Under the pieces are notes generated by a model. It did no database searches and had not been told where the DNA came from. It saw only the letters and a list, made by a program, of their open reading frames with translations. 64,000 nt of DNA from a virus (lineage: Duplodnaviria > Caudoviricetes). Below, in pieces: positions 23,138 to 63,437 of the stretch. Within the stretch, counting starts at the first letter, position 1, and each line of letters begins with the position of its first letter. The DNA lies in IMG/VR virus record IMGVR_UViG_3300032237_000809, positions 32,001 through 96,000 of that record, one strand, 5' to 3'. The position numbers and the translations under genes are program-made.

Positions 23138-23210
23138 ATCTTCAACCGGGACAAAGGTAGTCTACACAAGATTTGAATAGTTGTCAAGCCCCCTCAAAGT
23201 GTGCTATAAT
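23138..23210. promoter_or_regulatory. 73-bp bidirectional sigma70-type promoter element, copy 1
   Basis: Plus: TTGTCA(23181)-18-TATAAT(23205) toward gp55; minus: TTGACA-17-TAGACT followed by TTTGTCCCGGTTGAAGAT; inverted copy at 63365-63437. Confidence 0.75.
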
Positions 23211-23238
23211 TAACATAACTTATAGAAAGATTAATCTC

Positions 23239-23718
23239 ATGTCTAAAAAGAAATCAGAGCATTATGTAAACAACAAAGAATTTTTGGAAGCAATTACTAT
23301 CCATCGAGAAAAGATTGCTTATGCCAAAGAAAATGATTTACCAAAACCAAGAATTTCTGACTATATTGGTTCATGTTTTCTAAAGATTGCTACACATCTT
23401 TCATATAAACCAAATTTTGTAAATTATATGTTTCGTGAAGATATGATTTCTGATGGAATTGAAAACTGTGTTCAATACATCCATAATTTCAATCCAGAAA
23501 AGTCACAGAATCCATTTGCATATTTTACTCAAATTATTCACTATGCATTTCTTCGTAGAATTGAAAAGGAAAAGAAACAATTAAAAATTAAAAATAAAAT
23601 CATTGAACGTACTGGATTTGATGAGGTTATGATGATTGATGATAACTTGCTTTCTGGAAGCAATTCAGAGTATAATAGTATGAAAGATGCAATTCAATAT
23701 AGAAACAATAACCGATGA
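23239..23718 (+). CDS. gp55: Late-transcription sigma factor
   Basis: HYVNNKEFL, FLKIATHLSYKPNF.NY, MISDGIENC, NPFAYFTQI. Confidence 0.96.
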   Translation: MSKKKSEHYVNNKEFLEAITIHREKIAYAKENDLPKPRISDYIGSCFLKIATHLSYKPNFVNYMFREDMISDGIENCVQYIHNFNPEKSQNPFAYFTQIIHYAFLRRIEKEKKQLKIKNKIIERTGFDEVMMIDDNLLSGSNSEYNSMKDAIQYRNNNR

Positions 23719-23719
23719 C

Positions 23720-23756
23720 GCACCATAGTGTATAAATAAATAAAACACTATGGTGC
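23720..23756 (+). promoter_or_regulatory. Hairpin with late promoter in its loop, covering the HNH translation-initiation region
   Basis: Perfect 12-bp inverted repeat GCACCATAGTGT / ACACTATGGTGC enclosing TATAAATA, ending 3 nt before the ATG. Confidence 0.8.
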
Positions 23757-23759
23757 TTT

Positions 23760-24317
23760 ATGCCCAATCAATATTCACAGTCAAGAAAAAATAGATTAAA
23801 AGCAATAGAAAAGGGTAAAAAAACTTATACTAGTGAAACTATTTGTAAACACTGTGGAAGTTATGAAAAATATGTATCTACTTCTAATTGTGCCCCATGT
23901 TCTATAAAATCTGGTTTAGAAAAACTTAATAATAAAGAGTTGATGGAACCTTATAGAACAAAGGAGAAAAAGCAAAAATATTGTGAGGATAATAAAGAAA
24001 AAGTTAATGGAATAAAAAGAAAATATGCTAAAACTGAAAGAGGTAAAGCAGTAAGTTGTGAAAAGACAAGGAGATACCTTGCAAGAAAACAACTTGGTAT
24101 TCCAATAGATATTACGGAGCAGCAACTTCGAGAAATACAGGAAATATACCAACAGGCACAGCACTTGACTTTTACTACCGGTATGCAGTATGATGTAGAC
24201 CATATCATCCCTTTATTTGAGGGTGGACTACACCATCCGGATAACTTACAAGTTATTACACACAAAGAGCATCTTATGAAAACCGCACAAGAAAATAGTA
24301 GGAGGCAACAAAAGTGA
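23760..24317 (+). CDS. HNH homing endonuclease
   Basis: YDVDHIIPL..GGLHHPDNLQVIT..EH..K; N-terminal CxxC..CxxC. Confidence 0.88.
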   Translation: MPNQYSQSRKNRLKAIEKGKKTYTSETICKHCGSYEKYVSTSNCAPCSIKSGLEKLNNKELMEPYRTKEKKQKYCEDNKEKVNGIKRKYAKTERGKAVSCEKTRRYLARKQLGIPIDITEQQLREIQEIYQQAQHLTFTTGMQYDVDHIIPLFEGGLHHPDNLQVITHKEHLMKTAQENSRRQQK

Positions 24318-25351
24318 AAATTGGCGTAATTTCTGACACCCATTGGAGCGCCCGTAAAGCGTCTAAACATCTGCACGAGTATTTCCAACTTTTCTATGAT
24401 AATATCTTTTTTCCTGCTCTAAAAGATCATGGAGTAGAAACAGTCATTCATATGGGTGATGCTTTTGATAATCGTAAAAGTATTGATTTTTGGGGATTAA
24501 ATTGGACCAGAAGAGTTGTATTAGAACCTCTTAGAAAATATGAAGTTCATATGATTGTAGGTAATCATGATTGTTTTCTTCGCAACTCTAACGAAATTAA
24601 TTCCCCAGACCTACTTCTCAAAACTTATCCAAATATCAAAACTTATAGTTCTCCAACAAATACAAAAGTTGGTGGAATTGATATGACATTCATTCCTTGG
24701 ATTTGTAGTGAAAATTATGAAGAAACGATGAATGTAATTAAAAAATCGAAAGCAAAAGTTGCCTTTGGGCACTTAGAACTTCAAGGTTTTCGTGTAAATT
24801 GCAATTTAATTATGGAGGACCATGGATTGGATTCAAATATTTTTAAGAACTTCACAAAGGTATTTTCTGGTCATTACCATACTCGTTCTGACAATGGATC
24901 TATCTTCTATCTTGGTAATCCTTATGAAATGTATTGGACGGATGTAAATGATACTCGCGGATTTCATATTTTTGATACTGAAACGTTAGAGCATACGCCA
25001 ATTAATAATCCTTATAAATTGTTTTATAACATATATTATGAGGATACTCCTCATCAAATGTTTGATGCAACAGAATATGAAAATAAAATTGTAAAAATCA
25101 TTGTTCGTAAAAAATCTAAACCAAAAGATTTTGAAAAATTTGTAGATAAATTATATACAGTGGGTATTCAAGATCTTAAAATTATTGAAAATTTTGATAT
25201 ACAAGAAAGTGAAGATTTTGAAATTGATGAAGAAGAAAATACTATTTCAATTCTAAATCGTTATATTGATGATTCAGAAATTCAATATGATAAGAATATC
25301 ATTAAAGGTATTCTACAGGATCTTTATCAACAAGCTTGCGAAGTAGAATAA
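24314..25351 (+). CDS. gp47: Recombination endonuclease subunit (Mre11/SbcD-like)
   Basis: SDTH, GDAFDNRK, GNHD, GHLE, SGHYH metallophosphoesterase motifs; GTG start. Confidence 0.95.
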   Translation: MKIGVISDTHWSARKASKHLHEYFQLFYDNIFFPALKDHGVETVIHMGDAFDNRKSIDFWGLNWTRRVVLEPLRKYEVHMIVGNHDCFLRNSNEINSPDLLLKTYPNIKTYSSPTNTKVGGIDMTFIPWICSENYEETMNVIKKSKAKVAFGHLELQGFRVNCNLIMEDHGLDSNIFKNFTKVFSGHYHTRSDNGSIFYLGNPYEMYWTDVNDTRGFHIFDTETLEHTPINNPYKLFYNIYYEDTPHQMFDATEYENKIVKIIVRKKSKPKDFEKFVDKLYTVGIQDLKIIENFDIQESEDFEIDEEENTISILNRYIDDSEIQYDKNIIKGILQDLYQQACEVE

Positions 25352-25617
25352 TGTTTCTTCTTACACTCAAGGATAAAAAAACTGATGGGGCATTTGCTGT
25401 AGAAGATAAATTTGGAGATAGAGTTTTATTTCTTTTTGAGGAGGAAGATGATGCAACTCGTTATGCATTAATGCTTGAAGATCAAGAAGAAAGTGAAATG
25501 GATGTTATAGAAATTGATGAAGAACTTGCCATTAGGACTTGTAAGATGTATAATTATAAGTATGCAGTGGTTACACCAAACGATATTGTGATTCCCCCTA
25601 AGAATGATAATTTTTAA
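25351..25617 (+). CDS. Conserved hypothetical protein
   Basis: LFLFEEEDDATRYA, D.VIPP; coupled between gp47 and gp46. Confidence 0.7.
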   Translation: MFLLTLKDKKTDGAFAVEDKFGDRVLFLFEEEDDATRYALMLEDQEESEMDVIEIDEELAIRTCKMYNYKYAVVTPNDIVIPPKNDNF

Positions 25618-27319
25618 AACTATAAAATGGAAGAACTTTCTTTCTACAGGACAGCATTTCACTGAAATTGATTTTCAAAAAAATCATACAAATTTAATTG
25701 TTGGTACGAATGGTTCTGGAAAATCAACTCTTCTAGATGCACTCACATTTGCCCTATTTAATAAAGCATTTCGTAAAATTAACAAAAATCAACTTTCTAA
25801 TAGCACCAACGAAAAGGATTGTGTTGTTGAAGTTGAGTTTTCTATAAACAATAAAAATTATTTGGTTCGTCGTGGAATAAGACCAAATATTTTTGATATT
25901 GAGGTGAATGGGGTACAATTGCATAAAGAAGCAGATGATCGAGCAAATCAAAAAATCCTAGAAGAAAATATTCTAAAAGTTAATTACCACAGTTTTACAC
26001 AGATTGTGATTCTGGGTTCCAGCACTTTTGTTCCCTTTATGCAATTGACTACGGCAAATCGTCGCGAAGTGATTGAGGACTTGCTGGATATTCGTATCTT
26101 CTCTTCAATGAATAATTTGATTAAAGATAAGATTCGTCAGCAAAAGGACCAAATTAAATCTTTAGAACTAAAAAAACAATCTCTTAAAGATAAAGTTCAG
26201 ATGCAAAAAAACTTTATCGAACAATTAGAAAATCTTGGAAAAGATAATATAATTTCCAATAAGAAAAAGATTTCTAATTTAATCAGTGAAGTTGAGATTT
26301 ATATGAATCAAAATGCTCAAACTGAAGAAATGATATTTGGTTTTACTAAAAATCAAGAAGAGGTTATTGGTGCTACTGATAAATTAAAGAAATTAGATAA
26401 TTTAAAAGGTAAAATCTCTCAAAAAGTATCTACTATTACCAAAGAGCACAAGTTTTTTACTGAAAATACAGTTTGTCCTACATGCACACAAACTATTGAG
26501 GAAGAATTTAGGTTAAATAGAATTGCAGATTCTCAAAATAGTGCAAAAGAACTTCATAAAGGTTATAAAGATCTTGAAGATACTATAAAATTAGAAGAAG
26601 AGAGGGAGCGTCAATTTATTGCTCTATCTAAGGAGATTACGAAACTCAACAATGACATTTCTCAAAATAATGCTAGGATTTCCTCTAACCAACGACAGGT
26701 TAGGGATTTGGAAAGTGAAATTCAAACACTTACCGAACAACTTGAAAATAAGAATACTGAGCACGAAAAGTTAGAAGAGTTTCAGACCAATCTTCAAAAA
26801 GTCTTTGAAGATTTGGGAAATAAAAAAGAAGAGATAGTTTACTTTGATTTTGCATATTCTCTTCTTAAAGATGATGGTGTAAAGACTAAAATTATTAAAA
26901 AATATCTTCCCTTTATTAATCAGCAGGTAAATCGTTATTTGCAAATGATGGATTTTTATATTAATTTTCATCTCGATTCTGAGTTTAATGAGAGTATCAA
27001 GTCACCTATTCATGAGAACTTCTCTTATGCTTCTTTTAGTGAAGGTGAGAAAATGAGAGTAGATTTGAGTTTGTTATTTACTTGGAGAGAGGTTGCAAGA
27101 GTTAAGAATTCAGTCAATACAAATCTTTTAATTATGGATGAAGTTTTTGATAGTTCTCTTGATGGATTTGGGACCGATGAGTTTCTGAAAATTATTCGTT
27201 ATGTCATTAAGGATGCTAATATATTCGTGATTTCTCATAAGACTGGACTTGAGGACAAATTCCAAAGTGTCACAAGGTTTGACAAGAAGGGAGGATTCTC
27301 GTATAAAATAGAATCATAA
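25604..27319 (+). CDS. gp46: Recombination ATPase subunit (Rad50/SbcC-like)
   Basis: GTNGSGKST, CPTC zinc hook, SFSEGEKMR, LIMDEVFD, ISH. Confidence 0.97.
   Translation: MIIFKTIKWKNFLSTGQHFTEIDFQKNHTNLIVGTNGSGKSTLLDALTFALFNKAFRKINKNQLSNSTNEKDCVVEVEFSINNKNYLVRRGIRPNIFDIEVNGVQLHKEADDRANQKILEENILKVNYHSFTQIVILGSSTFVPFMQLTTANRREVIEDLLDIRIFSSMNNLIKDKIRQQKDQIKSLELKKQSLKDKVQMQKNFIEQLENLGKDNIISNKKKISNLISEVEIYMNQNAQTEEMIFGFTKNQEEVIGATDKLKKLDNLKGKISQKVSTITKEHKFFTENTVCPTCTQTIEEEFRLNRIADSQNSAKELHKGYKDLEDTIKLEEERERQFIALSKEITKLNNDISQNNARISSNQRQVRDLESEIQTLTEQLENKNTEHEKLEEFQTNLQKVFEDLGNKKEEIVYFDFAYSLLKDDGVKTKIIKKYLPFINQQVNRYLQMMDFYINFHLDSEFNESIKSPIHENFSYASFSEGEKMRVDLSLLFTWREVARVKNSVNTNLLIMDEVFDSSLDGFGTDEFLKIIRYVIKDANIFVISHKTGLEDKFQSVTRFDKKGGFSYKIES
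27253..27307 (+). promoter_or_regulatory. Early-type promoter: upstream dyad box plus TTGACA-17-TATAAA
   Basis: GGACAAATTCCAAAGTGTCACA (27253-74), -35 at 27279, -10 at 27302. Confidence 0.65.
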
Positions 27320-27330
27320 GCAAAAAACCG

Positions 27331-27468
27331 ATGCAAGTTCCAAATCGCTACCATCACTCTAAAAAGGAACAAAAGCGGAAACTCAAACCGCAAGCACTCC
27401 GACAAGCAAAGGCCCGCCGCCAAGCACTCAAGAAGCGTCTCCATCAAAGAGACGCTTCTTTTTTATAA
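27331..27468 (+). CDS. Small highly basic protein (45 aa, not in ORF track)
   Basis: MQVPNRYHHSKKEQKRKLKPQALRQAKARRQALKKRLHQRDASFL, with its own promoter and terminator. Confidence 0.65.
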   Translation: MQVPNRYHHSKKEQKRKLKPQALRQAKARRQALKKRLHQRDASFL

Positions 27469-27471
27469 ATA
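27431..27471 (+). terminator. Intrinsic terminator fused to late promoter
   Basis: AGAAGCGTCTC-CATCAAA-GAGACGCTTCT, T-run, TATAAATA. Confidence 0.8.
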
Positions 27472-27489
27472 TCTAAAAAGATTTTAGAT

Positions 27490-27963
27490 ATGGCAATAAG
27501 AAGATCGCGTAAAGATGAAACTGAAGAAGAAATTGCAGGACAACCAATTCCAAGAAAAAATCTTAGTCCTAAGAAAAGACATGAATTTGAAAAAAGGAGA
27601 AGAGAGGAAAGAGCAAAAAGAGGTGATCCAAGAGTAGGGGATTCTTTTTCTTCTCAAAGAATGATTGGAAGTAGAGGACATGGATCAGAATATGAGAATA
27701 CTAGGGCAATTCGTGAAGAAATTATTTCATATCTTCTGGATGAAGGTTTTGCATCTAATGAGAAATCTGCAGAATCAATTATGAGTGCTATGAGTGAAAC
27801 ATGGATTGAGAGTATTTTTGAAGCAGAAATTCAACCACCAAGAGAAAGGGTTGGTAATCTAACTAATATTAATATCCCTCAAGAAGAAATAGATGCGGCA
27901 AAAAAAAGAACTCTTGAGAAGGCAAGGAGAATGAGGGAAAAAAGAAAAGAAAAAAAAGATTGA
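27490..27963 (+). CDS. EGY-tag family late protein 1
   Basis: Arg/Lys-rich body plus EEIISYLLDEGFA....AESIMSAMSETWIESIFEA motif. Confidence 0.75.
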   Translation: MAIRRSRKDETEEEIAGQPIPRKNLSPKKRHEFEKRRREERAKRGDPRVGDSFSSQRMIGSRGHGSEYENTRAIREEIISYLLDEGFASNEKSAESIMSAMSETWIESIFEAEIQPPRERVGNLTNINIPQEEIDAAKKRTLEKARRMREKRKEKKD

Positions 27964-28018
27964 CCACTTTTCAAACTGGTACATGAGAGGGTCTTAGCAC
28001 CCTCTTTTTTCGTATAGT
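27962..28018 (+). promoter_or_regulatory. Dyad box + terminator hairpin + -10 box restarting early transcription
   Basis: GACCACTTTTCAAACTGGTACA, hairpin AGAGGGT/ACCCTCT with T-run, TATAGT at 28013. Confidence 0.65.
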
Positions 28019-28041
28019 GGGTTCATACCGCACAAAACCAA

Positions 28042-30225
28042 ATGTCTGTCAATCTTGAAATCAAAGGAATGCTTGCTAAACTTCTGGCAACGGAAGATTT
28101 GATCGTTGAGCACAAAAAAGTAGAGACTGCTTGCTTCAACGTTCATACTCGTGTTTTGACCCTACCTTTCTGGGAAAAGGCTAGTGATGCTGTTTACACG
28201 ATGCTTGTAGCTCATGAATGTGGACATGCAATTTTTACGGATGATACTGATTGGTCCAATGAATATAAAATTCCTAAACAATTTGTGAATATTGTTGAAG
28301 ATGTGCGAATTGAAAAATTGATGAAGCGCAAGTATGCTGGTCTTGCCAAATCTTTTTTCAATGGTTATAGGGAACTTTCAATTGAAGATTTCTTTCAACT
28401 GGGAGATGAAGATGTTAATGAGATGAATCTTGCCGATCGTGTCAATCTTTATTATAAAATCGGAAATTTTATTTCTGTTGATTTTACAGAACAAGAGAAA
28501 GAGATTGTCGATCTTATTGGTAGTGTAGAAACTTTTGATGATGCATTGAAGGCTGCTGAAGTACTTTATAATTACTGTAAGCAAGAAAATGAAGAACAAG
28601 AATCTATTCCTGATCTGGATATTGATGCAAATCAATCTTCGGGTTCTCAGAATGATACACCTTCAGATCTCTCTGATCAAACTCAAGGTGAGAATCAATC
28701 TGAACCTACTCCAGATACTTCCGATAAAGATCAAGATGGAGAAAAATCTCAATCAAATGATTCTAAGAATGATTTTAATAATACACAAGAAAAATCTGTA
28801 GATAATCCAAAACCAAGCAATAAAGGTGGAAAGACTTCCGAACCAAAAGTTAATACTATGGATAAACTTGAGAAGTCTCTCAAAGATCTTGTAAATCTTG
28901 ACTCTGTTGATAATGTTTATGTTGAAATTCCCAAATTGGACATTGATAATCTTATCATCAGCAATTCAGAACTTCATAATGTTTGTGAAGAATACTGGGG
29001 TAACAATGTTGAAGCATTTATCACTGCAGATAAAGAGTTTCGTGAGTTTAAAAATTCTACTCAAAAAGAAGTCAATTATTTGGTGAAAGAATTTGAATGC
29101 CGTAAAGCTGCAGATAGTTATGCTCGCGCTACAACTGCCCGTACTGGTGTTTTAGATTGTACAAAACTTCATACTTACAAATACAATGATGATCTATTCC
29201 GAAAAGTTACCACTCTTGCAGATGGTAAAAATCATGGACTAGTGTTCATTCTGGATTGGTCGGGTTCCATGAGTAGAGTGATGTTGGATACCATTAAACA
29301 ACTTTTTAATCTTATTTGGTTCTGTAAAAAACTGAATATTCCTTTTGATGTCTATGCTTTTACATATGATTATCCAGTTTCTAAACGTGAAGAAAATGGC
29401 ACTGTAATTTATCGCAAACCCTCATACAAAAAAGATGATGGCATACTTTGTATTGATGACTCCTTTTCTTTGCTTAATATGCTGACTAGTAAAGTATCTA
29501 ATAGAACACTAGAAAAACAGATGTTGAATATCTATCGTATTGCCAGATATTTTGGTGATAGGAATTATTCTCCGTATAGCATTCCGATTGGTTGGACCCT
29601 TTCCGGAACACCTTTGAATGAAACTTTGGTTGCTCTTCATGAAATTCTTCCTATCTTTCAAAGGAACAATAAAGCTCAAAAAGTTCAGTGTGTAATTCTC
29701 ACAGATGGTGATGCACCACATTTGAAATATCACAAACAATTTAATAATCGAACGTATGGTGGGGATAGTATCCCATATCTGGGTATTGGATCTCTTGGTC
29801 AAAATTCTTATTTGCGTGATCGTAAGACTGGATATACATATTCTCTGAATTGTGGATATAAGGATTTTTCAAATCTTCTTCTTCGCAATCTTCGGGATAA
29901 ATTTCCATCCGTTAATTTTATTGGTATGAGAATTATAGAATCTCATGATTGTAGTAATTTTATTCGTCATTATACTGGATATAATTATGATTCTGATTAT
30001 GGAAAAATTATGAGTCAATGGAAAAAAGAAAAATCTTTTTCTATTAAAAATTCTGGATACCATACTTATTTTGGTATTTCTGCAAGTTCTCTTTCAAGTA
30101 TTGCAGAATTTCAAGTTATTGAAGATGCTACAAAATCTCAAATTAAAAATGCTTTTATGAAAAGTTTAAAGAGTAAAAAAATGAATAAAAAAGTTCTCAA
30201 TGAATTTATTGATTTAATTGTTTAA
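28042..30225 (+). CDS. CobT-like protein: HExxH metallopeptidase domain, acidic linker, VWA domain
   Basis: AHECGH, NIVED.RIE, MIDAS motif LDWSGSM, GTPL, LTDG. Confidence 0.85.
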   Translation: MSVNLEIKGMLAKLLATEDLIVEHKKVETACFNVHTRVLTLPFWEKASDAVYTMLVAHECGHAIFTDDTDWSNEYKIPKQFVNIVEDVRIEKLMKRKYAGLAKSFFNGYRELSIEDFFQLGDEDVNEMNLADRVNLYYKIGNFISVDFTEQEKEIVDLIGSVETFDDALKAAEVLYNYCKQENEEQESIPDLDIDANQSSGSQNDTPSDLSDQTQGENQSEPTPDTSDKDQDGEKSQSNDSKNDFNNTQEKSVDNPKPSNKGGKTSEPKVNTMDKLEKSLKDLVNLDSVDNVYVEIPKLDIDNLIISNSELHNVCEEYWGNNVEAFITADKEFREFKNSTQKEVNYLVKEFECRKAADSYARATTARTGVLDCTKLHTYKYNDDLFRKVTTLADGKNHGLVFILDWSGSMSRVMLDTIKQLFNLIWFCKKLNIPFDVYAFTYDYPVSKREENGTVIYRKPSYKKDDGILCIDDSFSLLNMLTSKVSNRTLEKQMLNIYRIARYFGDRNYSPYSIPIGWTLSGTPLNETLVALHEILPIFQRNNKAQKVQCVILTDGDAPHLKYHKQFNNRTYGGDSIPYLGIGSLGQNSYLRDRKTGYTYSLNCGYKDFSNLLLRNLRDKFPSVNFIGMRIIESHDCSNFIRHYTGYNYDSDYGKIMSQWKKEKSFSIKNSGYHTYFGISASSLSSIAEFQVIEDATKSQIKNAFMKSLKSKKMNKKVLNEFIDLIV

Positions 30226-30264
30226 TTTATAAATAAGAATAGTAAAAGTAAAGTAAATAAGAAA

Positions 30265-31347
30265 ATGAACTCTGAACAAATTAAAGATCTTCATCTACTC
30301 TATACCGCAGTCTATGATGAAGATCTCAGAAAACAGTTTGATGAATATAACAATACCATCTATGACGAAGATATTGTAGAAGTTGCCACAGAGTACTTCT
30401 ATGCATATGGTCTGAATGATGATGGTATTGATATTCTGATTGAAAACATTGGTCTCGATTCTTTTGTGGAATTTGTTTATGATTTATCAGAAGATCTTTA
30501 TGATCTTACGGAAGCAAGAGCAGCAAGAAAAGCAAGGCCTGGTGGCAAAACTATTGAGCAAGTAAAAGCAGATATTGACGCCAAAGAAAAAAAAGCAGCA
30601 GCAAAGAAGGAAGCAAAGAAAAAAGTTACTACAGCAGCTACTGAGAAAACAGAAACAGAGAGAGTAAAACCAGAAACTCGTGGTCCTGAGAGTCAGGCAA
30701 AAGCACAACAACCAAAGGGAAAAAAACCTGTAAGAGATGCCATAGCAAGAACCATTCTTCAAGGTATTGAGCGTCATAATAAGGCAACAGCGACTGCAGG
30801 GCGCCTTGCTGGTGAAACTGGAGCAACTCTTGGTAGAATCGGTTCACTCGCTGCAGAGGCAGGTAGAAGGGCAGGTGAGCATATTAAAAAGCATGGATTG
30901 AAATCTCTTGCACATGAAGAAGTTGAACTTTTGGCGAATCAACTTATTGAGGAAGGTTATGATCTGAGTGATTATACTTGGGATGATATGATTGAGATTT
31001 ATGAAAAAACTGAGTCTAAGTATAAACCAAAAACCAAAGAAGAACTTGCAAGATATGTCTCTGCTCTTGATAGACTGCATCGTATGGCTACAGAAGTACG
31101 TGGACCAGAACCATCATCAACTCCAGAGAAAAAAAGAAAACCAAAAACGGATATGAGAAATGTCCAAGTTCATGAAGATCTTTATGATGTAATTCTCTCA
31201 CATCTTATCGATGAAGGTTATGCTGATTCTGTAGAACGGGCAGAAGTTATTATGGTGAATATGAGTGAAGAGTGGAGAGATGGAATTCTTGATGAAGCAA
31301 ATAGAGCAGACGATCATGTAACATCGAGTATGTATATGAGTAGTTAA
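30265..31347 (+). CDS. EGY-tag family late protein 2
   Basis: N-tag IKDLHLLYTAVY, middle LIEEGYDLSDYTWDDM, C-tag LYDVILSHLIDEGYA..AEVIMVNMSEEWRDGILDEA; late promoter at 30228. Confidence 0.8.
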   Translation: MNSEQIKDLHLLYTAVYDEDLRKQFDEYNNTIYDEDIVEVATEYFYAYGLNDDGIDILIENIGLDSFVEFVYDLSEDLYDLTEARAARKARPGGKTIEQVKADIDAKEKKAAAKKEAKKKVTTAATEKTETERVKPETRGPESQAKAQQPKGKKPVRDAIARTILQGIERHNKATATAGRLAGETGATLGRIGSLAAEAGRRAGEHIKKHGLKSLAHEEVELLANQLIEEGYDLSDYTWDDMIEIYEKTESKYKPKTKEELARYVSALDRLHRMATEVRGPEPSSTPEKKRKPKTDMRNVQVHEDLYDVILSHLIDEGYADSVERAEVIMVNMSEEWRDGILDEANRADDHVTSSMYMSS

Positions 31348-31578: not shown

Positions 31579-32718
31579 ATGTCTCGTAAAAATTCTGTGA
31601 CCGACGATCAACTGTTTACTGAACTCAAAGAACTGTTTGGTTCTGAATTTAGTGCTGGTGATATCCGTGGATATTGTGCTTTTAACAATCTTAATTATCA
31701 GACCGTGACTCGCCGTCTGGAACCATTTAAAACTGATCGTGGTCGTTGGAATCTTGAAGTGACTCAAGAAAAAATTGACCAAATTGAGCATACCTTCCAA
31801 TCCCCCGCCGCTCTTCCAAGTCTTCCAGTTGTGCAACAAAATCTTATTCCTGAAAAAGACAATACTTTTGTTAAATTTGGAAATTTTAACGATATTAAAA
31901 AAATTATCTCTTCAAATCTTTTTTATCCGACGTTTATTACTGGTCTTTCTGGCAACGGAAAAACTTTCGGTATTGAGCAGGCATGTGCTCAACTGAAACG
32001 TGAAATGATCCGTGTCAATATTACAATTGAGACTGATGAAGACGATTTGATTGGTGGGTTCCGTCTTGTTAATGGTGAAACTGCCTGGCATAATGGTCCA
32101 GTCATCGAAGCACTTCAACGTGGTGCAATTCTTCTTCTCGATGAGATTGATCTTGCATCGAATAAAATCATGTGTCTTCAATCCGTTCTTGAAGGTAAAG
32201 GAGTCTTTCTCAAAAAAATTGGTAAGTTTGTAAATCCTACTGAAGGATTCAACATTTTTGCCACTGCAAATACTAAAGGTAAGGGTTCTGATGATGGTCG
32301 CTTCATCGGCACCAACGTGCTCAATGAAGCGTTCCTGGAGAGGTTCCCAGTGACCTTTGAGCAGTCTTATCCTGCTCCTTCCACCGAACAGAAGATCCTT
32401 GAAGGCATTGCTCTGGACCTTGGTGTGGAAGATCGTGATTTCTGCAAGCGTCTGGTTGATTGGGGTGATGTGATTCGCAAGACCTTCTACGATGGTGGTA
32501 TTGAAGAAATCATCAGCACCCGTCGTCTGGTTCATATCATTCGTGCCTACAGCATTTTTAATGACAAGGCAAAGGCAATTCAAGTTTGTATCAATCGTTT
32601 TGATGATGAAACTAAGACTGCTTTCCTGGAACTCTATGATAAAATCGACGCTGATTTTGTAATGCCTTCTGAAGGTGAGCAAGTGACTTATAATATTGAC
32701 AATATGCCACAAGTCTGA
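31579..32718 (+). CDS. cobS: CobS-like MoxR AAA+ ATPase
   Basis: GLSGNGKT, ETDEDDLIGG, LLLDEID, TANTKG, NEAFLERF, STRRL. Confidence 0.93.
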   Translation: MSRKNSVTDDQLFTELKELFGSEFSAGDIRGYCAFNNLNYQTVTRRLEPFKTDRGRWNLEVTQEKIDQIEHTFQSPAALPSLPVVQQNLIPEKDNTFVKFGNFNDIKKIISSNLFYPTFITGLSGNGKTFGIEQACAQLKREMIRVNITIETDEDDLIGGFRLVNGETAWHNGPVIEALQRGAILLLDEIDLASNKIMCLQSVLEGKGVFLKKIGKFVNPTEGFNIFATANTKGKGSDDGRFIGTNVLNEAFLERFPVTFEQSYPAPSTEQKILEGIALDLGVEDRDFCKRLVDWGDVIRKTFYDGGIEEIISTRRLVHIIRAYSIFNDKAKAIQVCINRFDDETKTAFLELYDKIDADFVMPSEGEQVTYNIDNMPQV

Positions 32719-55730: not shown

Positions 55731-56705
55731 ATGGACCTTATTGATTTAAAATATATTGGACTAGTTTCGTCAAGATTGCAAAAGTTTAAACGTATTAAGG
55801 CAGATCTATACAACTTTCGTTGCCCTATTTGTGGAGATTCGCAAAAAAATAAAAGTAAAGCAAGAGGTTATTTATATGCGGTAAAAACAAATACCAACTT
55901 TAAATGTCATAATTGTGGAGCAAGTTTATCCTTTAATAATTTTCTTAAAGAAGTGGATTCAACACTCCATAAGCAGTATACTATGGAGAAATTTAAAGAA
56001 GGATTTACTGGAAAAAACTTTGTAGTTGAAACACCATCATTTGATTTTACAAAACCAATATTTAAACAAAAATTAGATCTACCTAAAGCATCGGAGATTT
56101 TAGTTGCTAAGCAATATCTTGAAAAAAGACTTTTAAATCCAAATAAATTTTATTTTGCGGAAAAATTTCAGGAATGGACTAATACGCAAAAATTTACATT
56201 CAATAAAATTGGTAAAGATGAAAGTAGAATAGTAATACCATTACATACTAGAGAAGGTGAAATATTTGGTTTTCAAGGAAGATCGCTGGGTTCTAACAAT
56301 GTTAAATATATTACAGTGATTTTGAATGAAAGTATTCCAAAAGTATATGGTTTGAATGAAGTGCAAAACAATAAAACAATCTATGTTACAGAAGGTCCAT
56401 TTGATTCAACTTTTGTTGAAAATGCAATAGCAATGTGTGGATCTGATATTGCACTCGATAGTCTTAATTTGGGTAATGATATTGTTTATGTACTTGATAA
56501 TGAACCCCGAAATAGGGAAATTTGTAATAGGATTTCTAAACTTATAGATGGAGGTAAACAAGTCGTCATCTGGCCAAGATCTATAAATTATAAAGACATC
56601 AATGATATGAAAATTGCTGGACTTTCTATTATGGATGTGTTAAAATTAAATACATATAAAGCACTAGAAGCAAAAATCAAATTCAACGAATGGAAGAAAG
56701 TATGA
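55731..56705 (+). CDS. gp61: DNA primase
   Basis: CPICGDS..CHNCG zinc finger, FQGR, TEGPFDS, DNEPRN, KDINDM. Confidence 0.96.
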   Translation: MDLIDLKYIGLVSSRLQKFKRIKADLYNFRCPICGDSQKNKSKARGYLYAVKTNTNFKCHNCGASLSFNNFLKEVDSTLHKQYTMEKFKEGFTGKNFVVETPSFDFTKPIFKQKLDLPKASEILVAKQYLEKRLLNPNKFYFAEKFQEWTNTQKFTFNKIGKDESRIVIPLHTREGEIFGFQGRSLGSNNVKYITVILNESIPKVYGLNEVQNNKTIYVTEGPFDSTFVENAIAMCGSDIALDSLNLGNDIVYVLDNEPRNREICNRISKLIDGGKQVVIWPRSINYKDINDMKIAGLSIMDVLKLNTYKALEAKIKFNEWKKV

Positions 56706-59002
56706 GTAACGGAACACGGGTAGTTAAGAGAAATGGATCTGTTGAAGGTTTAGATTTAAATAAACTTCATTTGATGGTAGAAGAAGCATGTAAGGATCTG
56801 GCAGGAGTATCAGCATCACAAGTTGAAATGCAATCTGGTATTCAATTTTATGATGGAATTTCTACAGTAGAAGTTCAGGAAATTTTGATTCGCTCTGCTT
56901 CTGACCTAATTGATCTTGAACATCCTAATTATCAATTTGTTGCTGCTCGTTTGCTTTTATTCGCTCTTCGTAAACAATTGTTTGGTCGTATGTATGAATG
57001 TCCAAATGTTCTTGAGCATACTAAAAAATGTGTAGAACTTGGTGTTTATGATGAAGAGATTCTTTCTCTATATAATGAGGAAGAGTTTGAAAAACTTCAA
57101 TCATTTGTTGATCATGATCGTGATTATCTTTTTACTTATGCAGGTCTTCGTCAGGTAGTTGATAAGTATTTGGTACAAGATCGTAGTAGTGGACAACTTT
57201 ATGAAACTCCACAATTCATGTATCTTTTGATTGCTGCCACTATTTTTTCTAAATATCCAAAAGAAACACGTTTAGATTATGTTAAGAGGTATTATGATGC
57301 AATCAGCAAACACAAGATCAACATCCCAACACCAATCATGGCAGGAGTCAGAACACCTCTTCGCCAATATGCTTCTTGTGTTCTCGTTGATGTTGATGAT
57401 ACCCTCAGGAGTATCGGTCACTCTGATTTGGCTATTTACGAATATGTTGCACAGAGAGCTGGTATCGGTATCAACGCAGGTAGAATCCGTGGCATCAACT
57501 CTAAAATCAGAGGTGGAGAGGTACAACACACAGGCATTATTCCCTTCCTTAAGAAGTTTGAAGCAACTGTCAGATCTTGCACACAAAACGGTATTAGAGG
57601 TGGTTCTGCTACAGTCTTTTTTCCTATCTGGCATCAAGAAATAAGTGATATTCTGGTCTTAAAAAATAATAAAGGAACTGAAGATAATCGTGTTCGTAAG
57701 TTAGACTATGGAATTCAACTCAGCAAAATCTTCTATGAACGATTCATTCAAAACGGAGAAATCACACTTTTCTCACCACACGATGTTCCTGGTCTTTATG
57801 ATGCTTTTGGCACTGATAGATTTGACGACCTTTACGTGGGTTATGAACGAGATGCATCTGTTCCAAGAAAAACTATCGGTGCTCAAGAACTCTTTTTGGA
57901 CCTTCTGAAGGAAAGAGCAGAAACTGGTCGTATTTACATTATGAATATTGACCATTGTAATTCTCATAGTCCTTTCCTTGATAAGATTTCAATGAGCAAT
58001 CTTTGTATGGAAATACTTTTGCCGACTAAACCAATTCAACACATTGATGATCCAAATGGTGAAATTGCTCTTTGCATTCTTAGTGCTATCAATATTGGAA
58101 AGATTAAAACCAATGAAGATCTTGAAGTTCTTTGTGATCTTGCCATTAGAAGTCTTGATGAACTTATTGATTTTCAAGGATATCCCGTTAAAGCAGCAGA
58201 AATCGCAACCAAAGCGCGACGTTCACTTGGAGTAGGTTATATTGGTCTTGCACACTATCTTGCCAAGAATAATGTCAAATATGATGATCAGAATGCTTGG
58301 CAATTGGTTCATGATTTAACTGAGGCATTCCAATATTATCTAATCAAGGCAACCGTAAATCTTGCAAAAGAAAAAGGGGCATGTGCATATTCTCATCGTA
58401 CCAAGTACGGTCAAGGAATTCTGCCAATTGATACCTATAAAAAGGATGTTGATGAATTGGTTGAAAATGTGCTAAAATATGATTGGGAAGCACTTCGGGA
58501 AGAGGTAAAAATTTATGGAGTCAGAAACTCCACTCTCTCAGCACAAATGCCCTCCGAGAGCAGTTCAGTCGTCTCCAATGCCACAAATGGAATTGAACCA
58601 CCTCGCGGATATCTATCCATTAAGAAGTCCAAGAAAGGTCCTCTTAAGCAAATTGTCCCACAGTTTGGAACACTCAAAAACAATTATACGTTGCTTTGGG
58701 ATATGCCTAGCAATCGTGGTTATATTAGTATTGTTGCAGTTATGCAGAAGTTCTTCGATCAAGCGATTTCTGGAAACTGGTCCTATAATCCGGGCAATTA
58801 TCCGAATAATGAAGTTCCTGTTAGCGTGATGGCACAAGATATGCTTACGTGCTTTAAGTATGGGCATAAAACTGCATATTATCAAAACACTTATGATAAT
58901 AAAACTGATGAAGTGGTAGATGAACCAAAGCAAGAACTCAATTCACTTCTTGATGATATTATGAGTTCTGATGAAACTAGTTGCGATAGTTGCTCAATTT
59001 AA
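56702..59002 (+). CDS. nrdA: Ribonucleotide reductase class Ia alpha subunit
   Basis: ATP cone, PTPIM, SCVL, SNLCMEI, MPSESSS, YYQ, C-terminal CDSC. Confidence 0.98.
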   Translation: MSNGTRVVKRNGSVEGLDLNKLHLMVEEACKDLAGVSASQVEMQSGIQFYDGISTVEVQEILIRSASDLIDLEHPNYQFVAARLLLFALRKQLFGRMYECPNVLEHTKKCVELGVYDEEILSLYNEEEFEKLQSFVDHDRDYLFTYAGLRQVVDKYLVQDRSSGQLYETPQFMYLLIAATIFSKYPKETRLDYVKRYYDAISKHKINIPTPIMAGVRTPLRQYASCVLVDVDDTLRSIGHSDLAIYEYVAQRAGIGINAGRIRGINSKIRGGEVQHTGIIPFLKKFEATVRSCTQNGIRGGSATVFFPIWHQEISDILVLKNNKGTEDNRVRKLDYGIQLSKIFYERFIQNGEITLFSPHDVPGLYDAFGTDRFDDLYVGYERDASVPRKTIGAQELFLDLLKERAETGRIYIMNIDHCNSHSPFLDKISMSNLCMEILLPTKPIQHIDDPNGEIALCILSAINIGKIKTNEDLEVLCDLAIRSLDELIDFQGYPVKAAEIATKARRSLGVGYIGLAHYLAKNNVKYDDQNAWQLVHDLTEAFQYYLIKATVNLAKEKGACAYSHRTKYGQGILPIDTYKKDVDELVENVLKYDWEALREEVKIYGVRNSTLSAQMPSESSSVVSNATNGIEPPRGYLSIKKSKKGPLKQIVPQFGTLKNNYTLLWDMPSNRGYISIVAVMQKFFDQAISGNWSYNPGNYPNNEVPVSVMAQDMLTCFKYGHKTAYYQNTYDNKTDEVVDEPKQELNSLLDDIMSSDETSCDSCSI

Positions 59003-59021
59003 AAATAAATAAGGAAAAAGT

Positions 59022-60164
59022 ATGATTGATAATATGACAGTTTTCAATTCCCATGAAGTTGATACCAAAAAGCAACCAATGTTTTTTGGACAACCTCTTG
59101 GCATTCAACGATATGATACTTACAAGTATCCTATTTTTGATAAATTGACTCAACAACAATTAAGTTATTTTTGGCGTCCTGAAGAAATATCACTTCAAAA
59201 AGACCGTGGTGATTATCAAACACTTCGACCCGAACAGAAACATATTTTTACTTCTAATCTAAAATATCAAATTATGTTAGATTCCATTCAAGGTCGTGGA
59301 CCAGGAATGGCATTTGCTCCCTACTGCTCACTTCCAGAATTAGAAGCGTGTATGAAGGTTTGGGAATTTATGGAAATGATTCACTCACGATCTTATACAT
59401 ATATTATCAAAAATATATATTCAGATCCTTCGGATGTGTTTGATACTATTCTTAGAGATGAAAAAATTCTTGAACGCGCATATAGTGTAACCGAAGCATA
59501 TGATGATTTTATCAATAGTGCTCAACATTATGGAACTTCTGAACTTTGGAAACACGCTCAAGAACAAGTTCCCTATGCACAGGATCAAAGATATGAACTC
59601 AAAAGAAAGCTCTTTAGAGCAGTTGCAAATGTTAATATTCTTGAAGGTATTCGTTTTTACGTCAGTTTTGCTTGCAGTTTTGCATTTGGCGAACTCAAAC
59701 TTATGGAAGGAAGTGCAAAAATCATCAGTCTGATTGCGCGTGACGAGAATCAACATCTAGTCATTACTCAAAATATTTTGAACAAATGGAAAGAAAGTGA
59801 TGATCCTGATATGAAGAAAATCATGGATGAAGAAGAACCATGGGTATATAAGACCTTTGAAAAAGCAGTCAATCAAGAGAAACTTTGGGCAGAATATCTG
59901 TTCAAAGATGGTTCTATGATTGGTCTGAATGATAAACTTCTTCAGCAATATGTTGAATGGATTGCAAATCGTCGTATGAGGGCGATTGGTTTGAAACCTC
60001 TTTATGATATTCCAGCAAAAAATAATCCACTTCCTTGGACGGAGCATTGGATTTCTTCCAAAGGATTGCAAGTAGCTCCACAAGAAGTGGAAGCGGAACA
60101 ATATTTAATTGGAGGAATTAAACAAGATGTTACCAAAGATACTTTCTCAGGATTCCAATTATGA
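59022..60164 (+). CDS. nrdB: Ribonucleotide reductase class Ia beta subunit
   Basis: FWRPEE, DSIQGR, EMIHSRSY, EGIRFY, RDENQH. Confidence 0.98.
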   Translation: MIDNMTVFNSHEVDTKKQPMFFGQPLGIQRYDTYKYPIFDKLTQQQLSYFWRPEEISLQKDRGDYQTLRPEQKHIFTSNLKYQIMLDSIQGRGPGMAFAPYCSLPELEACMKVWEFMEMIHSRSYTYIIKNIYSDPSDVFDTILRDEKILERAYSVTEAYDDFINSAQHYGTSELWKHAQEQVPYAQDQRYELKRKLFRAVANVNILEGIRFYVSFACSFAFGELKLMEGSAKIISLIARDENQHLVITQNILNKWKESDDPDMKKIMDEEEPWVYKTFEKAVNQEKLWAEYLFKDGSMIGLNDKLLQQYVEWIANRRMRAIGLKPLYDIPAKNNPLPWTEHWISSKGLQVAPQEVEAEQYLIGGIKQDVTKDTFSGFQL

Positions 60165-60288
60165 TGAATGGGTAGAACAGGAAATTTTGAATGCCTTTAA
60201 AGATGCTGCAGAAGTAGATGAATTTATTTTTGGTGATTATAATTATGAAGAAGACTGGTTAGGTAAAATGAATAATGATATCAATTGA
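60127..60288 (+). CDS. Small acidic hypothetical protein (53 aa, not in ORF track)
   Basis: MLPKILSQDSNYDEWVEQEILNAFKDAAEVDEFIFGDY...; overlaps the nrdB end and stops at the terminator. Confidence 0.5.
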   Translation: MLPKILSQDSNYDEWVEQEILNAFKDAAEVDEFIFGDYNYEEDWLGKMNNDIN

Positions 60289-60318
60289 GAGTCCTTTGGG
60301 ACTCTTTTTTTATAAATA
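60288..60318 (+). terminator. Intrinsic terminator fused to late promoter
   Basis: AGAGTCC-TTTG-GGACTCT, T-run, TATAAATA. Confidence 0.8.
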
Positions 60319-60402
60319 AAATTATAAAAAGGTATATTAAATGGAAAGAATTACATCGAATCAAGTAGTTGATTTAATGGAGGCATATCAGGCAGTATAT
60401 GT

Positions 60403-60506
60403 TCCTCAAGAAAATTTAAATGAAGAATTGGTCTGGGAAGAAGTTGAAAATTGGTCCTCAAGAAAATTTAAATGAAGAATTGGTCTGGGAAGAAGTTGAA
60501 AATTGG
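60403..60506 (+). repeat. Perfect 52-bp tandem duplication
   Basis: TCCTCAAGAAAATTTAAATGAAGAATTGGTCTGGGAAGAAGTTGAAAATTGG twice. Confidence 0.95.
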
Positions 60507-61019
60507 GTAAATTCTCTTTTAGAAGAAGGATATGACTTGGGAGATTATGCTTGGGAAGAAATGTATGAGGAATATTTGAGTGAAGTTCCCATGACTGGTA
60601 GCAATCGTCCCACTAAATTAAGTGACCCGTTAGCAAATACAGGACGCGCTATAGGAAGTGCAGCACGTTCTTTTGTTACGGGTTCCTCTAGACCAGGCAA
60701 TACTGGATCTCAATCTACGAGGGCAACACAACCTTCACCAGGAACTTCGACTGGTGGGGGAGGATATGCTGCCGGCCGTACTACAAGTTCACCGGTAACA
60801 CCATATCGTGCAAATGATCCTAGAAGAACTGATACTAGTACAAGATCAAGATTTGCTCGTCCAATGAATGCAGGAACTCCAAGTACAGTTGCCGTCAGAG
60901 GAACTGGTGGATCTTCTACACAAAGACCACCAATTGGATCTTTACCTGCAAGTGCAAGACAACCAACACAATATCCAGCAGGAGTTTCTACTGGTGTTGG
61001 TGGTGGAAATGCTGGTGCC

Positions 61020-61212
61020 TCTAGACCCGCTCCTGCTGCCCCTGCTAGACCAGTTGCTAGACCCTCTGCTGCCGCTCCTAGACCCGCTGCTAGTGCCCCT
61101 GCTGCCGCTCCTAGACCAGTTGCTAGACCGTCTGCTGCTCCTGCTCCTAGTGTCCCTAGATCCGCTACTAGTGCCCCTGCTGCCGCTCCTAGACCCGCTG
61201 CTAGTGCTCCTA
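61020..61212 (+). repeat. Coding minisatellite (Ala-Pro-Arg-Ser repeats)
   Basis: Recurring CCTGCTGCCGCTCCTAGACC / GCTAGTGCCC units encoding APAAAPRP. Confidence 0.85.
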
Positions 61213-61737
61213 GTATATCAAAATCTACATCTCAAGCACCTAGTACATCCCCTGCTGCAACAACTGGTAATCCACCATTAGCACCAAAACCATTACCCCC
61301 AATCATGGGTAAACCAAGTCTTTCATCGCAAGCAGCAGAAATTCGTGCCATGAGACAAAGATCTCAACAACGTATTATCTCACAAGGTGGAACTCCAGCA
61401 ACTGCATTGGTTCAAAGTTTTGATCCATTTGATGTTGTATTGGGACATCTAATTGATGAAGGTTATGCTGATACTGAAGAATCAGCACTCCAAATTATGG
61501 CAAATATGAGTGAAGAGTGGAGAGATGGAATTCTTGATGAAGCAAAAACTGTTATGAGTGTGACATCACCTTCTGAAAAATCCAGAAGATTAAATATATC
61601 CAAAGCTAAACCTTCAGAAAATTTGGAAGGTTAAAGAAGACTGTCTGCTGCCAGAGATATGAAACAACAGGATGTTGATCGTAGGGCTCCTCAAATTGAA
61701 AAAAAAAAAATTAAAAGAAGACATAATATTAATTGAA

Positions 61738-61793
61738 GACTACTTTCCAAACTGTTCATATAGAGGTCTTCGGACCTCTTTTTTTTATAAATA
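61738..61793 (+). terminator. Degenerate dyad box + UUCG terminator + late promoter
   Basis: GACTACTTTCCAAACTGTTCA; AGAGGTC-TTCG-GACCTCT, T-run, TATAAATA. Confidence 0.8.
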
Positions 61794-61820
61794 AGTTTAT
61801 ACAGAAAATATTTTATTAAA

Positions 61821-63356
61821 ATGTCTAACCTATCAACAGAAGTTTTTGGAGATATGAATTTTCTTTATGAGCATATTGCAACTAAAGAAAATGAAAAACT
61901 TAATGAAAACTCTGAATACTATGACGAAGAATTTGCAGAACTTGTAGAGAATATTATTTCTACTATTTCTTTATCAATGGTCTATGAAGGTTATAGTGCA
62001 GAAGGAATTTTATCATTTCTTGCAGATTTTTCAGAAGAAGATATCGTTGAAAGATATTTAAATTTTGATGAAAATATTCTTACGGAAAGTGTAGTTCCTG
62101 AAGAGTATATTGTTGAACAATTAGATATTTTTGATAACGCCATTTCTGAAGGTTTAGGAACAGTAATTGGAAGAGTTGCTAAAGGTGCAGCTTCCCTGGC
62201 AGGAAGAATTGTTTCAAAACCTGCAAGAATGAAGGTTGCACAAAAACTCATGACTAGCACAAATCCTGCTAGAACAGGAAAGGCAGTTGATAGATTGGCA
62301 AGAATGAAGTTGAACAAGGCAGGAGCTCCTGCGGATGTGACTAAAGGTTTAGTAGATGCTGCACCAAATATTTCAACAAAAGCTAGATTAATAGCAACTG
62401 CTCCTGTAATGGGTAAGGTCGTTAAGGGTGTACAAAAAGTAAAAGATATTGCCAGAGGTGCAAAAGCAGCATTAACGGGTTCAACTGCTAAAAAAATTGG
62501 TTTGGGTGCTGCAGCATTAGGTGCTGCTACTGGAGCAGGTTATATTGGTGGTAAGATGTCGGGAGCAGGTGGTGGTCAAGGATCTTCACCAGCAATTGCA
62601 AAATCAACAGGTAAACCCTCTGACAATTTTATGCAAGGTAGTTCTCTTGCTAAACTTGGTGGAAGAGAAGGTAGAGTTAAAGGTGGAGAATTTAGAAGTA
62701 TTAATTGGACGCAACAATCTAGAGATAGGTATAACGCAGCAAATCCATCTACAAAACCTACAGCATCTGCTGCATCTACACCTTCTGCTCCTAGTGGCAG
62801 TGGTGGTGGTTCTGCTGCATCTTCTGGTGGCGGTGGCGGTGGTGCTGGAACAAGAGCACCTTCTGCTGCAAGAGCATCTTCTCCATCAAAAGCATCCTCT
62901 GCTACAAAGGCAAAAGAAACGGGTAAAACTCCAGCAGGAGAGACACCAATGCAGACTTGGGCAAGAACTAATCCAAAACTTGCTGCTAAAGTAAAACTTG
63001 GTCAGTCTGGATACGATGAAATTTCTGCAAAAAGAACTGTACCTGGACCTTATGAAAAACAGGATCAAACTCCAACAACTGGACCAGAACCAACAGAAGC
63101 ACAAAAGACTCAAGCAGGATCAGATGTTGCTGCATATCAGGCAGCAGAAAAGGAAAGATTTAATAAAAAGCAAAAAGAAGTAGCAGCATTAACACAGAAA
63201 GAATCTTATGATGCATATGATTTGGTAATTGAATATTTACTTCATACTGGACATGCAGATACAATCTCTGAAGCAGAATATGTAATATCAAATTTTGATT
63301 CTGATATGCTTGATACTCTTATTGAATCTACAGCAATCTGGATTGAAAATCTTTGA
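61821..63356 (+). CDS. EGY-tag family late protein 5 (divergent), with Gly/Ala hydrophobic segment and low-complexity body
   Basis: Acidic N-terminal region with VYEGYS, IGLGAAALGAATGAGYIGG, C-tag YDAYDLVIEYLLHTGHADTISEAEYVI. Confidence 0.72.
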   Translation: MSNLSTEVFGDMNFLYEHIATKENEKLNENSEYYDEEFAELVENIISTISLSMVYEGYSAEGILSFLADFSEEDIVERYLNFDENILTESVVPEEYIVEQLDIFDNAISEGLGTVIGRVAKGAASLAGRIVSKPARMKVAQKLMTSTNPARTGKAVDRLARMKLNKAGAPADVTKGLVDAAPNISTKARLIATAPVMGKVVKGVQKVKDIARGAKAALTGSTAKKIGLGAAALGAATGAGYIGGKMSGAGGGQGSSPAIAKSTGKPSDNFMQGSSLAKLGGREGRVKGGEFRSINWTQQSRDRYNAANPSTKPTASAASTPSAPSGSGGGSAASSGGGGGGAGTRAPSAARASSPSKASSATKAKETGKTPAGETPMQTWARTNPKLAAKVKLGQSGYDEISAKRTVPGPYEKQDQTPTTGPEPTEAQKTQAGSDVAAYQAAEKERFNKKQKEVAALTQKESYDAYDLVIEYLLHTGHADTISEAEYVISNFDSDMLDTLIESTAIWIENL

Positions 63357-63364
63357 TTACTGAG

Positions 63365-63437
63365 ATTATAACATAATCTAAGGGGGCTTGACAAGTCCTC
63401 TTTTTTTATGTAGACTAGGTTTGTCCCGGTTGAAGAT
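63365..63437. promoter_or_regulatory. 73-bp bidirectional promoter element, copy 2 (also forms a terminator hairpin)
   Basis: TTGACA(63388)-17-TAGACT(63411)-AGG-TTTGTCCCGGTTGAAGAT; minus-strand TTGTCA-18-TATAAT. Confidence 0.75.

Follow-up and report, generated by a model that had tools for sequence, protein, structure and literature searches.

The stretch of DNA analysed here, hereafter the window, comprises 64,000 nucleotides (positions 32,001 to 96,000 of the IMG/VR virus record IMGVR_UViG_3300032237_000809) from an uncultured T4-like cyanophage, whose contig is 125.5 kb long and ~58% complete according to CheckV. It carries two inverted copies of a 73-bp element, each with an identical 18-bp block, here called the start box, at the predicted start of a transcript. 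The best joint explanation, which we regard as probable, is that the repeats are two members of a small, dispersed family of cassettes with early promoters, found at fixed positions in T4-like cyanophages. In the reading that we prefer, the start box would most likely serve a group of short early RNAs as their functional 5′ end.

An earlier note on this DNA had described the element as a bidirectional promoter present twice in inverted orientation, and the pair is confirmed. The reverse complement of 23138-23210 aligns with 63365-63437 without gaps at 58 of 73 positions, whereas random pairs of 73-mers drawn from the window share 20.5 ± 4.2. The 18-mer TTTGTCCCGGTTGAAGAT, claimed to be identical in both, is exact at 23138-23155 on the minus strand (copy 1) and at 63420-63437 on the plus strand (copy 2). 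No further site with three or fewer mismatches occurs in the window, where 0.06 would be expected, or in the 125.5-kb contig. A cassette sequence model built from 94 copies recognizes only two places in the contig, which are the two repeats (copy 1 scores 75 bits with model R1), and more copies may lie in the missing 42% of the genome. The spacer separating the -35 box from the -10 box has diverged between the copies, again as the note had claimed, and identity is confined to functional blocks.

In both copies, one strand carries the host-type promoter TTGACA-17-TAGACT (10/12), close to the consensus expected for host RNA polymerase in its unmodified form, and the opposite strand carries TTGTCA-18-TGnTATAAT (11/12, with the TG). 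These two arms are the best sigma-70-type matches in the neighbourhood of each copy, and the presence of host-type arms on both strands supports, by sequence match, the description of the element as a bidirectional promoter. The -35 hexamers of the opposing arms share 5 bp. Because of this overlap, we infer that two polymerases cannot bind at once, and the cassette would therefore serve one polymerase at a time. One arm per copy is aimed antisense into a gene, and a credible open reading frame (ORF) is absent from that strand, as the note had stated: the minus-strand ORF at 22987-23187 was rejected because its start lies inside the -35 box, and the one at 63242-63451 because its start lies upstream of the predicted leftward transcript start.

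The canonical start distance, 7 nt past the -10 box, falls on the G of TGT in most copies. In the window, the predicted start is the G of TTTGT, at 23152 (minus strand) in copy 1 and at 63423 (plus strand) in copy 2, and the 18-mer corresponds to predicted transcript positions -3 to +15. The start box has the general form TTTGT-N4-GTTGAAGAT, and in sets of loci collected without bias the consensus around the start is TTTG(+1)T followed by four variable bases and by G-TT-(G/C/A)-AAG-R. The 5′ end of the box is conserved across copies; in the clade of the window the box is fixed as TTTGTCCCGGTTGAAGAT, and the predicted transcript has GUCCCGGUUGAAGAU as its 5′ start box. Two other readings of these bases were rejected. 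A tiny ORF behind the box (ATG AGA ACT TAG and variants) lacks its ATG in many copies. A late promoter concealed between the -35 box and the -10 box would be expected to resemble NATAAATA, the late consensus of cyanophages (PMC2984593), but the A-rich spacer of classes B and C (defined below) is not of this type and is absent from classes A and D.

The exact 18-mer is found in at least 119 viral contigs, and the same -35 and -10 boxes precede it in every contig listed. Among the matches listed, the copies occur in four contexts:

Class A, 15 copies: leader of a SegE-like gene (the copy 2 type).
Class B, 45 copies: back to back with the promoter of gp55 (the copy 1 type).
Class C, 42 copies: flanked by a tail-protein gene and a ~400-amino-acid (aa) helicase gene.
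Class D, ~16 copies: directed antisense into another convergent gene at its 3′ end.

The position of the cassette is also conserved in loci gathered through their proteins. In a sample of gp55 loci chosen regardless of the 18-mer (80 fetched by the gp55 protein and 6 isolates), the cassette stands back to back with the gp55 promoter in 83 of 86. The carriers include the isolates P-SSM2, Syn9, S-RSM4, S-SSM7, and S-SRM01, while at the gp55 locus of MED4-213 the match extends over the promoter half only. The link between the element and gp55, which the earlier note had suggested, is thus real and general. The cassette also precedes the SegE-like gene in about 65 of 80 loci fetched by the SegE-like protein. 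The existence of two position-specific classes, each conserved across many phages, bears out the claim that the element is maintained by selection and did not arise by recent duplication.

Complete genomes carry one to four strong copies at fixed places. S-SRM01 harbors four (before the SegE-like gene, gp55, the helicase gene, and a glutaredoxin gene), S-SKS1 three, and S-RSM4 two. Syn9 and P-SSM2 have the gp55 copy only. The gp55 copy is thus the universal one, the other copies having spread in some lineages. Transcript starts are predicted in Syn9 at ~123,698 (DQ149023.2, minus strand), in S-SRM01 (MW015081.1) near 141.69 kb (minus), 179.36 kb (plus), 44.63 kb (plus), and 10.9 kb (minus), and in S-SKS1 (NC_020851.1) near 97.33 kb (plus), 61.56 kb (minus), and 169.86 kb (minus). 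The second copy of S-RSM4 (FM207411.1 ~177.72-177.80 kb, minus strand) precedes a 46-aa ORF, which is followed by tRNA-Leu and a tRNA cluster. The cassette may drive tRNA genes in some phages.

Copies are not confined to phages. The cassette model finds a copy in 10 of 151 genomes sampled from one picocyanobacterial family (loci L330 and L332-L340), and a class-wide sample of 151 genomes yields two matches, one of them only a chance match to the 18-mer. The exact 18-mer has 30 matches in 185,579 cellular genomes, none with a promoter ahead, and these were taken as chance; the genuine host copies came to light only with the cassette model. The copies in host-family genomes are single and have the same boxes, start box, and dyads (see below). 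They are followed by a 300-350-nt non-coding leader and by small ORFs of unassigned family, those beside the cassette having neither a Pfam nor a PHROG family. A tRNA gene is located near the copy in two loci. From their sequence, these loci look like island or satellite DNA wired to phage promoters. L335, L339, and L340 have a phage late-type box (TATAAATA, CTAAATA, AATAAATA) just ahead of a small ORF, and a short dyad follows directly after this box: AACTC-TGT-GAGTT in L339, one with a longer loop in L335, and CTCT/AGAG in L340.

The best argument that the product of the cassette can be an RNA in its own right comes from the class C unit of relatives, where the arrangement points to a short terminated transcript. 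In the 30 distinct versions, the unit measures about 80-85 nt between the predicted start and a strong 3′ hairpin or canonical terminator, and the versions fold into a 5′ domain followed by that 3′ element. Behind the unit stand a TGCTATAAT promoter and the helicase gene of ~400 aa. The unit is found, for example, in S-SKS1 (NC_020851.1 ~169.76-169.9 kb, minus strand) and S-SRM01 (MW015081.1 ~44.6-44.75 kb, plus strand). A precedent exists in bacterial small RNAs of the RybB and OmrA/B type, which combine a conserved 5′ seed with an intrinsic terminator; the 81-85-nt unit of the relatives likewise comes with a promoter of its own, a conserved 5′ end, and a hairpin at the 3′ end. The small RNA, or switch tied to gp55, that the earlier note had offered as one of its interpretations would fit the data. 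RNAalifold returned a weak 5-pair consensus for the class C alignment, with no compensatory change. A 5′ hairpin, GUCC...GGAC, appears in many single class C folds, its 5′ arm being fixed by how the loci were found. No Rfam family matches the cassette or the class C unit.

Several results weigh against the start box being a functional RNA 5′ end. The window itself has no class C copy, and a short transcript defined by its own promoter and terminator, as in class C, is seen at neither of its copies: copy 2 runs into a gene, and behind the leftward start of copy 1 no terminator was found down to 22300 (~850 nt), which leaves the 3′ end of that RNA undefined. A scan of the window for targets of the start box returned only non-specific, G-U-rich matches. 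A function of the primary RNA alone does not account for the dyad described next, since the 5′ arm of the dyad precedes the start. Finally, a role at the DNA level, in promoter escape or as an operator, would explain the conservation in all contexts equally well.

The dyad is formed by the 3-6 bases right after the -10 box, which covary with positions +3 to +8. The arm pairs include ACC/GGT, AGG/CC, AACC/GGTT, AACTC/GAGTT, AACTT/AAGTT, CACC/GGTG, and ATGC/GCGT, and the resulting stem is 5-6 bp long with TGT in the loop; in the clade of the window it is only 2-3 bp. When upstream arms were swapped among 75 distinct sequences, the mean best stem was 4.48 as observed versus 3.87 ± 0.08 after shuffling, and 0 of 2000 shuffles reached the observed value, a contrast that is inflated by the relatedness of the sequences, although several of the arm types are plainly independent. 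G-T pairs occur often in the dyad, always on the sense strand, which suggests a single-stranded fold rather than a duplex palindrome. The hairpin cannot arise in the primary transcript, because transcription is predicted to start downstream of the 5′ arm. It is possible that the dyad is a mask that arises in RNA only when transcription reads through, a fold adopted by the non-template strand at initiation, or an odd operator.

Among the forms that the preferred reading could take, one that we put forward tentatively, as unlikely in its entirety, is that the start box marks early RNAs of both cyanophages and host mobile islands. Its single-stranded 5′ end would serve as a seed or a protein handle and the upstream arm would hide this end in transcripts that read through, so that only RNAs made from their own promoter would be active. 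If this is true, the late-translation trick of T4 (described below for copy 2) is applied to non-coding RNAs, and the gp55 copy ties the start-box RNA to the late-sigma-factor switch.

The box is conserved whether it is followed by the leader of an mRNA, by an antisense run, by a short RNA, or by the leader of a host island, and it extends to ~+15, within the polymerase footprint. Both observations would be expected of an initial-transcribed-sequence element that acts in DNA on promoter strength or clearance. The RNAs would then have no role except to carry their genes, and the dyad would act on promoter opening or scrunching; we consider this account unlikely. The dyad spans non-transcribed discriminator bases and early transcribed bases, which only DNA holds together. 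The early promoters of phage T5 share a TTGA block near +7, to be compared with the TTGA at +8 to +11 in the start box. At the T5 promoter N25, likewise a strong phage early promoter, changes from +3 to +20 shift productive RNA output about tenfold (PMC12464699). The N25 effect is experimental, whereas the cassette is known from conservation alone, and a dyad has not been described for T5. The sense-strand G-T pairs, however, point to a single-stranded fold and away from duplex DNA. The box is missing from other early-type promoters of these phages, such as the weak Syn9 matches upstream of hli genes, and therefore is not a general requirement for early promoters. Were the box only a promoter-strength element, it would still provide an annotation rule for early promoters as well as for the early-silent, late-on design proposed for the SegE-like gene.

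Copy 1 lies just after uvsY-uvsW (uvsY at 20774-21211, uvsW at 21268-22737), with AT-rich DNA on its left (22600-23131 is 22.7% GC versus 33.3% in the window); both placements agree with the earlier note. The gene order is NUMOD3-motif ORF, uvsY, uvsW, Sm-like gene, cassette, gp55, HNH/endonuclease VII-like ORF, and gp47, and the DNA around uvsW and gp55 is ~74% identical to that of P-SSM2. The features of the locus are as follows:

22730-23131, plus strand: Sm-like (“methylamine utilization”) gene (PF16243, phrog_471).
23138-23210: copy 1, of class B (placed back to back with the promoter of gp55; 58 of the 73 positions identical in copy 2).
23138-23155, minus strand: start box (18-mer) of the leftward transcript, predicted positions -3 to +15.
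23159-23187, minus strand: leftward host-type promoter TTGACA-17-TAGACT (10/12; arm present in 83/86 gp55 loci).
23181-23210, plus strand: rightward extended -10 promoter TTGTCA-18-TGcTATAAT for gp55 (11/12, with the TG; predicted start ~23217).
23239-23718, plus strand: gp55, the late sigma factor (phrog_234, E 6e-67).

In this arrangement, the rightward arm would be the promoter of gp55, and the RNA from the leftward arm would be untranslated and run antisense to the uvsW/Sm-like operon at its 3′ end, where the predicted transcript would cover the 3′ end of the Sm-like gene. Because no terminator was found between the Sm-like gene and gp55, we infer that the leftward arm acts as a competitor of the gp55 promoter and stops transcripts reading through from the operon, and in this way could help to set the timing and amount of gp55. 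No stem-loop was found in or beside the copy 1 promoter. A cis-antisense RNA is already described in a cyanophage, namely CfrI of S-PM2 (PMC2984593), and the leftward arm of copy 1 would likewise give one, although CfrI is located at psbA and its sequence is unrelated to the cassette. Endonuclease-type ORFs flank this block of recombination and late-sigma genes: the NUMOD3-motif ORF (20104-20784) overlaps the start of uvsY, and the HNH/endonuclease VII-like ORF (23760-24317) occupies the gp55-gp47 interval, an arrangement shared with S-SRM01.

Of the main photosynthetic bacteria in the ocean, a large share falls victim to T4-like cyanophages. Cyanomyoviruses lack Alt, Mod, MotA, and AsiA, their early genes have sigma-70-like motifs and their late genes NATAAATA, and how early and late timing is achieved without those proteins is still puzzling (PMC2984593). 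A cassette placed on the promoter of the late sigma factor in nearly all of these phages offers a concrete handle on the timing of their expression. The conserved start, the antisense arm, the sibling copies, one of which heads a short terminated RNA, and the host copies are further handles.

The earlier note, which had pointed out the position of copy 1 behind uvsY-uvsW, beside the AT-rich DNA, had proposed as one reading that the copies are paired replication origins. Such origins would be of the T4 oriF (uvsY) and oriG (gene 34) type, at which a promoter transcript persists as an R-loop and primes the leading strand. The likeness is that of a promoter near recombination genes without an obvious coding transcript; the leftward run of at least 850 nt from copy 1 without a terminator is in keeping with it, as is the presence of several copies per genome of one strong promoter with a conserved start. 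The R-loop origins of T4, however, use MotA-dependent middle promoters, whereas cyanomyoviruses have neither motA nor asiA (PMC2984593) and the cassette has host-type -35 and -10 boxes in place of a MotA-type promoter. Copy 2 forms the leader of a gene and includes a late promoter together with a translational hairpin, the transcripts of relatives serve a gene or end in a hairpin or terminator after 81-85 nt, and copies are also present in host chromosomes. These contexts fit origins poorly, and the proposal, while not refuted, is unsupported and in our view very improbable.

Copy 2 follows a 511-aa ORF of unknown family (61821-63356) and precedes the SegE-like gene. It is a composite, with the following features:

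63365-63437: copy 2, class A, leader of the SegE-like gene (58/73 identity with copy 1; matches the model).
63365-63394, minus strand: leftward extended -10 promoter TTGTCA-18-TGtTATAAT (11/12, with the TG; predicted start ~63358), antisense into the 511-aa ORF.
63380-63408, plus strand: intrinsic terminator of the upstream 511-aa ORF (stem 63380-63402, then a T-run; the -35 box lies in the loop).
63388-63416, plus strand: rightward host-type promoter TTGACA-17-TAGACT (predicted start at G 63423).
63420-63437, plus strand: start box (18-mer), an exact match to copy 1.
63435-63442, plus strand: late promoter box GATAAATA (NATAAATA type), read from sequence, sharing the last 3 bases of the start box.
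63444-63472, plus strand: hairpin TAACTCAT / ATGAGTTA, 8 bp with a 13-nt loop, holding the AUG (63444-63451 pairs with 63465-63472).
63465-63914, plus strand: SegE-like GIY-YIG gene, 149 aa (PF19835, E 4e-54; phrog_447).

The spacer of copy 2 is thus the 3′ arm and T-run of an intrinsic terminator, the stem of which is kept in relatives by compensatory changes (for example, GGGGGC/GTCCCC, GCACCC/GGGTGC, and GGAGGC/GTCTCC). The late box is present in 58 of 61 cassette-bearing SegE-like relatives. In the window, it ends one base ahead of the 5′ arm of the AUG hairpin. All 8 positions of this hairpin pair, with G-U counted, in 35 of the 61 relatives, and one stem position is G-C, G-U, or A-U depending on the phage.

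This arrangement suggests a switch in translation. Early transcripts from the rightward arm would be untranslatable, the hairpin hiding the AUG of the SegE-like gene, while late transcripts would start inside the 5′ arm of the hairpin and could be translated. The same design is known from T4 endonuclease genes, in which a hairpin silences early transcripts and a late promoter within the hairpin relieves the silencing (PMC2988022). In I-TevI, I-TevII, I-TevIII, segB, and mobE of Aeh1, as would be the case in copy 2, the hairpin holds the translation start and late transcripts lack its 5′ arm (PMC2988022). Copy 2 would differ in that the AUG itself is paired, rather than the Shine-Dalgarno site, and in having as its upstream promoter one dedicated to early transcription and just ~45 nt away from the AUG.

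The start box of copy 2 overlaps the late promoter of the SegE-like gene, and the operator of I-TevI in T4 overlaps that enzyme's own late promoter and resembles its homing site (PMC2988022). By analogy, the box could be an operator for a DNA-binding protein of the phage, perhaps the SegE-like protein, that silences promoters; copy 2 would be the protein's own operator and the copy between uvsW and gp55 its target. T4 SegE targets uvsW (PMC2988022), copy 1 is located ~400 bp behind uvsW, and the dyad seen in marine versions of the box has the start site at its centre. We nonetheless judge an operator improbable. The SegE-like protein has 149 aa, almost all of them GIY-YIG (PF19835 covers residues 7-129), which leaves little room for a DNA-binding domain, and Syn9 and P-SSM2 keep the box at gp55 without a second strong copy by the model. 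The dyad arms covary and tolerate G-T, both unusual for a protein site, and the box is also found in host genomes.

The leftward arm of copy 2 is unusual for its class. The TGnTATAAT form is found in 6 of 41 class A copies scored, compared with 46 of 52 in class B and 13 of 13 in class D, a distribution that suggests exchange between cassettes at the shared -35 core. In S-SKS1, moreover, a 21-nt start is identical between the copy at gp55 and the one at the helicase gene. Taken further, such exchange could make the likeness of the copies a mere by-product of recombination or gene conversion between dispersed cassettes, with no selection on the 18-mer, but this we find scarcely credible. Identity is limited to functional blocks while the intervening spacer has diverged, phages with only ~74% DNA identity between their genes still conserve the box, and it is kept at gp55 in genomes with a single strong copy, which have no conversion partner.

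Modular shuffling, along with mini-circle formation, is attributed to the promoter-early stem-loops (PeSLs) of the T4-like coliphages RB49 and phi1 (PMC2839356, PMC4122927), which are the nearest described thing. A PeSL is likewise a short repeated intergenic cassette, consisting of a strong sigma-70-type early promoter and a stem-loop terminator. The stem-loop may overlap the -35 box, as it does in copy 2, whereas copy 1 has no stem-loop, and both systems show signs of exchange between copies. However, RB49 and phi1 have ~50 PeSLs per genome, in hyperplastic regions ahead of ORFans (PMC2839356), compared with one to four cassettes at fixed places by core genes here. Descriptions of PeSLs include no conserved transcript start, opposite-strand promoter, or host-genome copies, and the cassette has all three. 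The 2014 PeSL paper makes no mention of cyanophages (PMC4122927). Given the differences in copy number, fixed positions, second promoter, start box, and host copies, we do not file the cassette as a PeSL.

Two further elements lie close to copy 2. A terminator-like hairpin on the minus strand at 62895-62917, ~440 nt past the predicted leftward start, could end the antisense RNA within the 511-aa ORF. On the other side, a near-consensus promoter without a start box, TTGACA-17-TACAAT, is located at 63814-63842 inside the 3′ end of the SegE-like gene. It faces the next gene and recalls the T4 promoters that are embedded in endonuclease genes.

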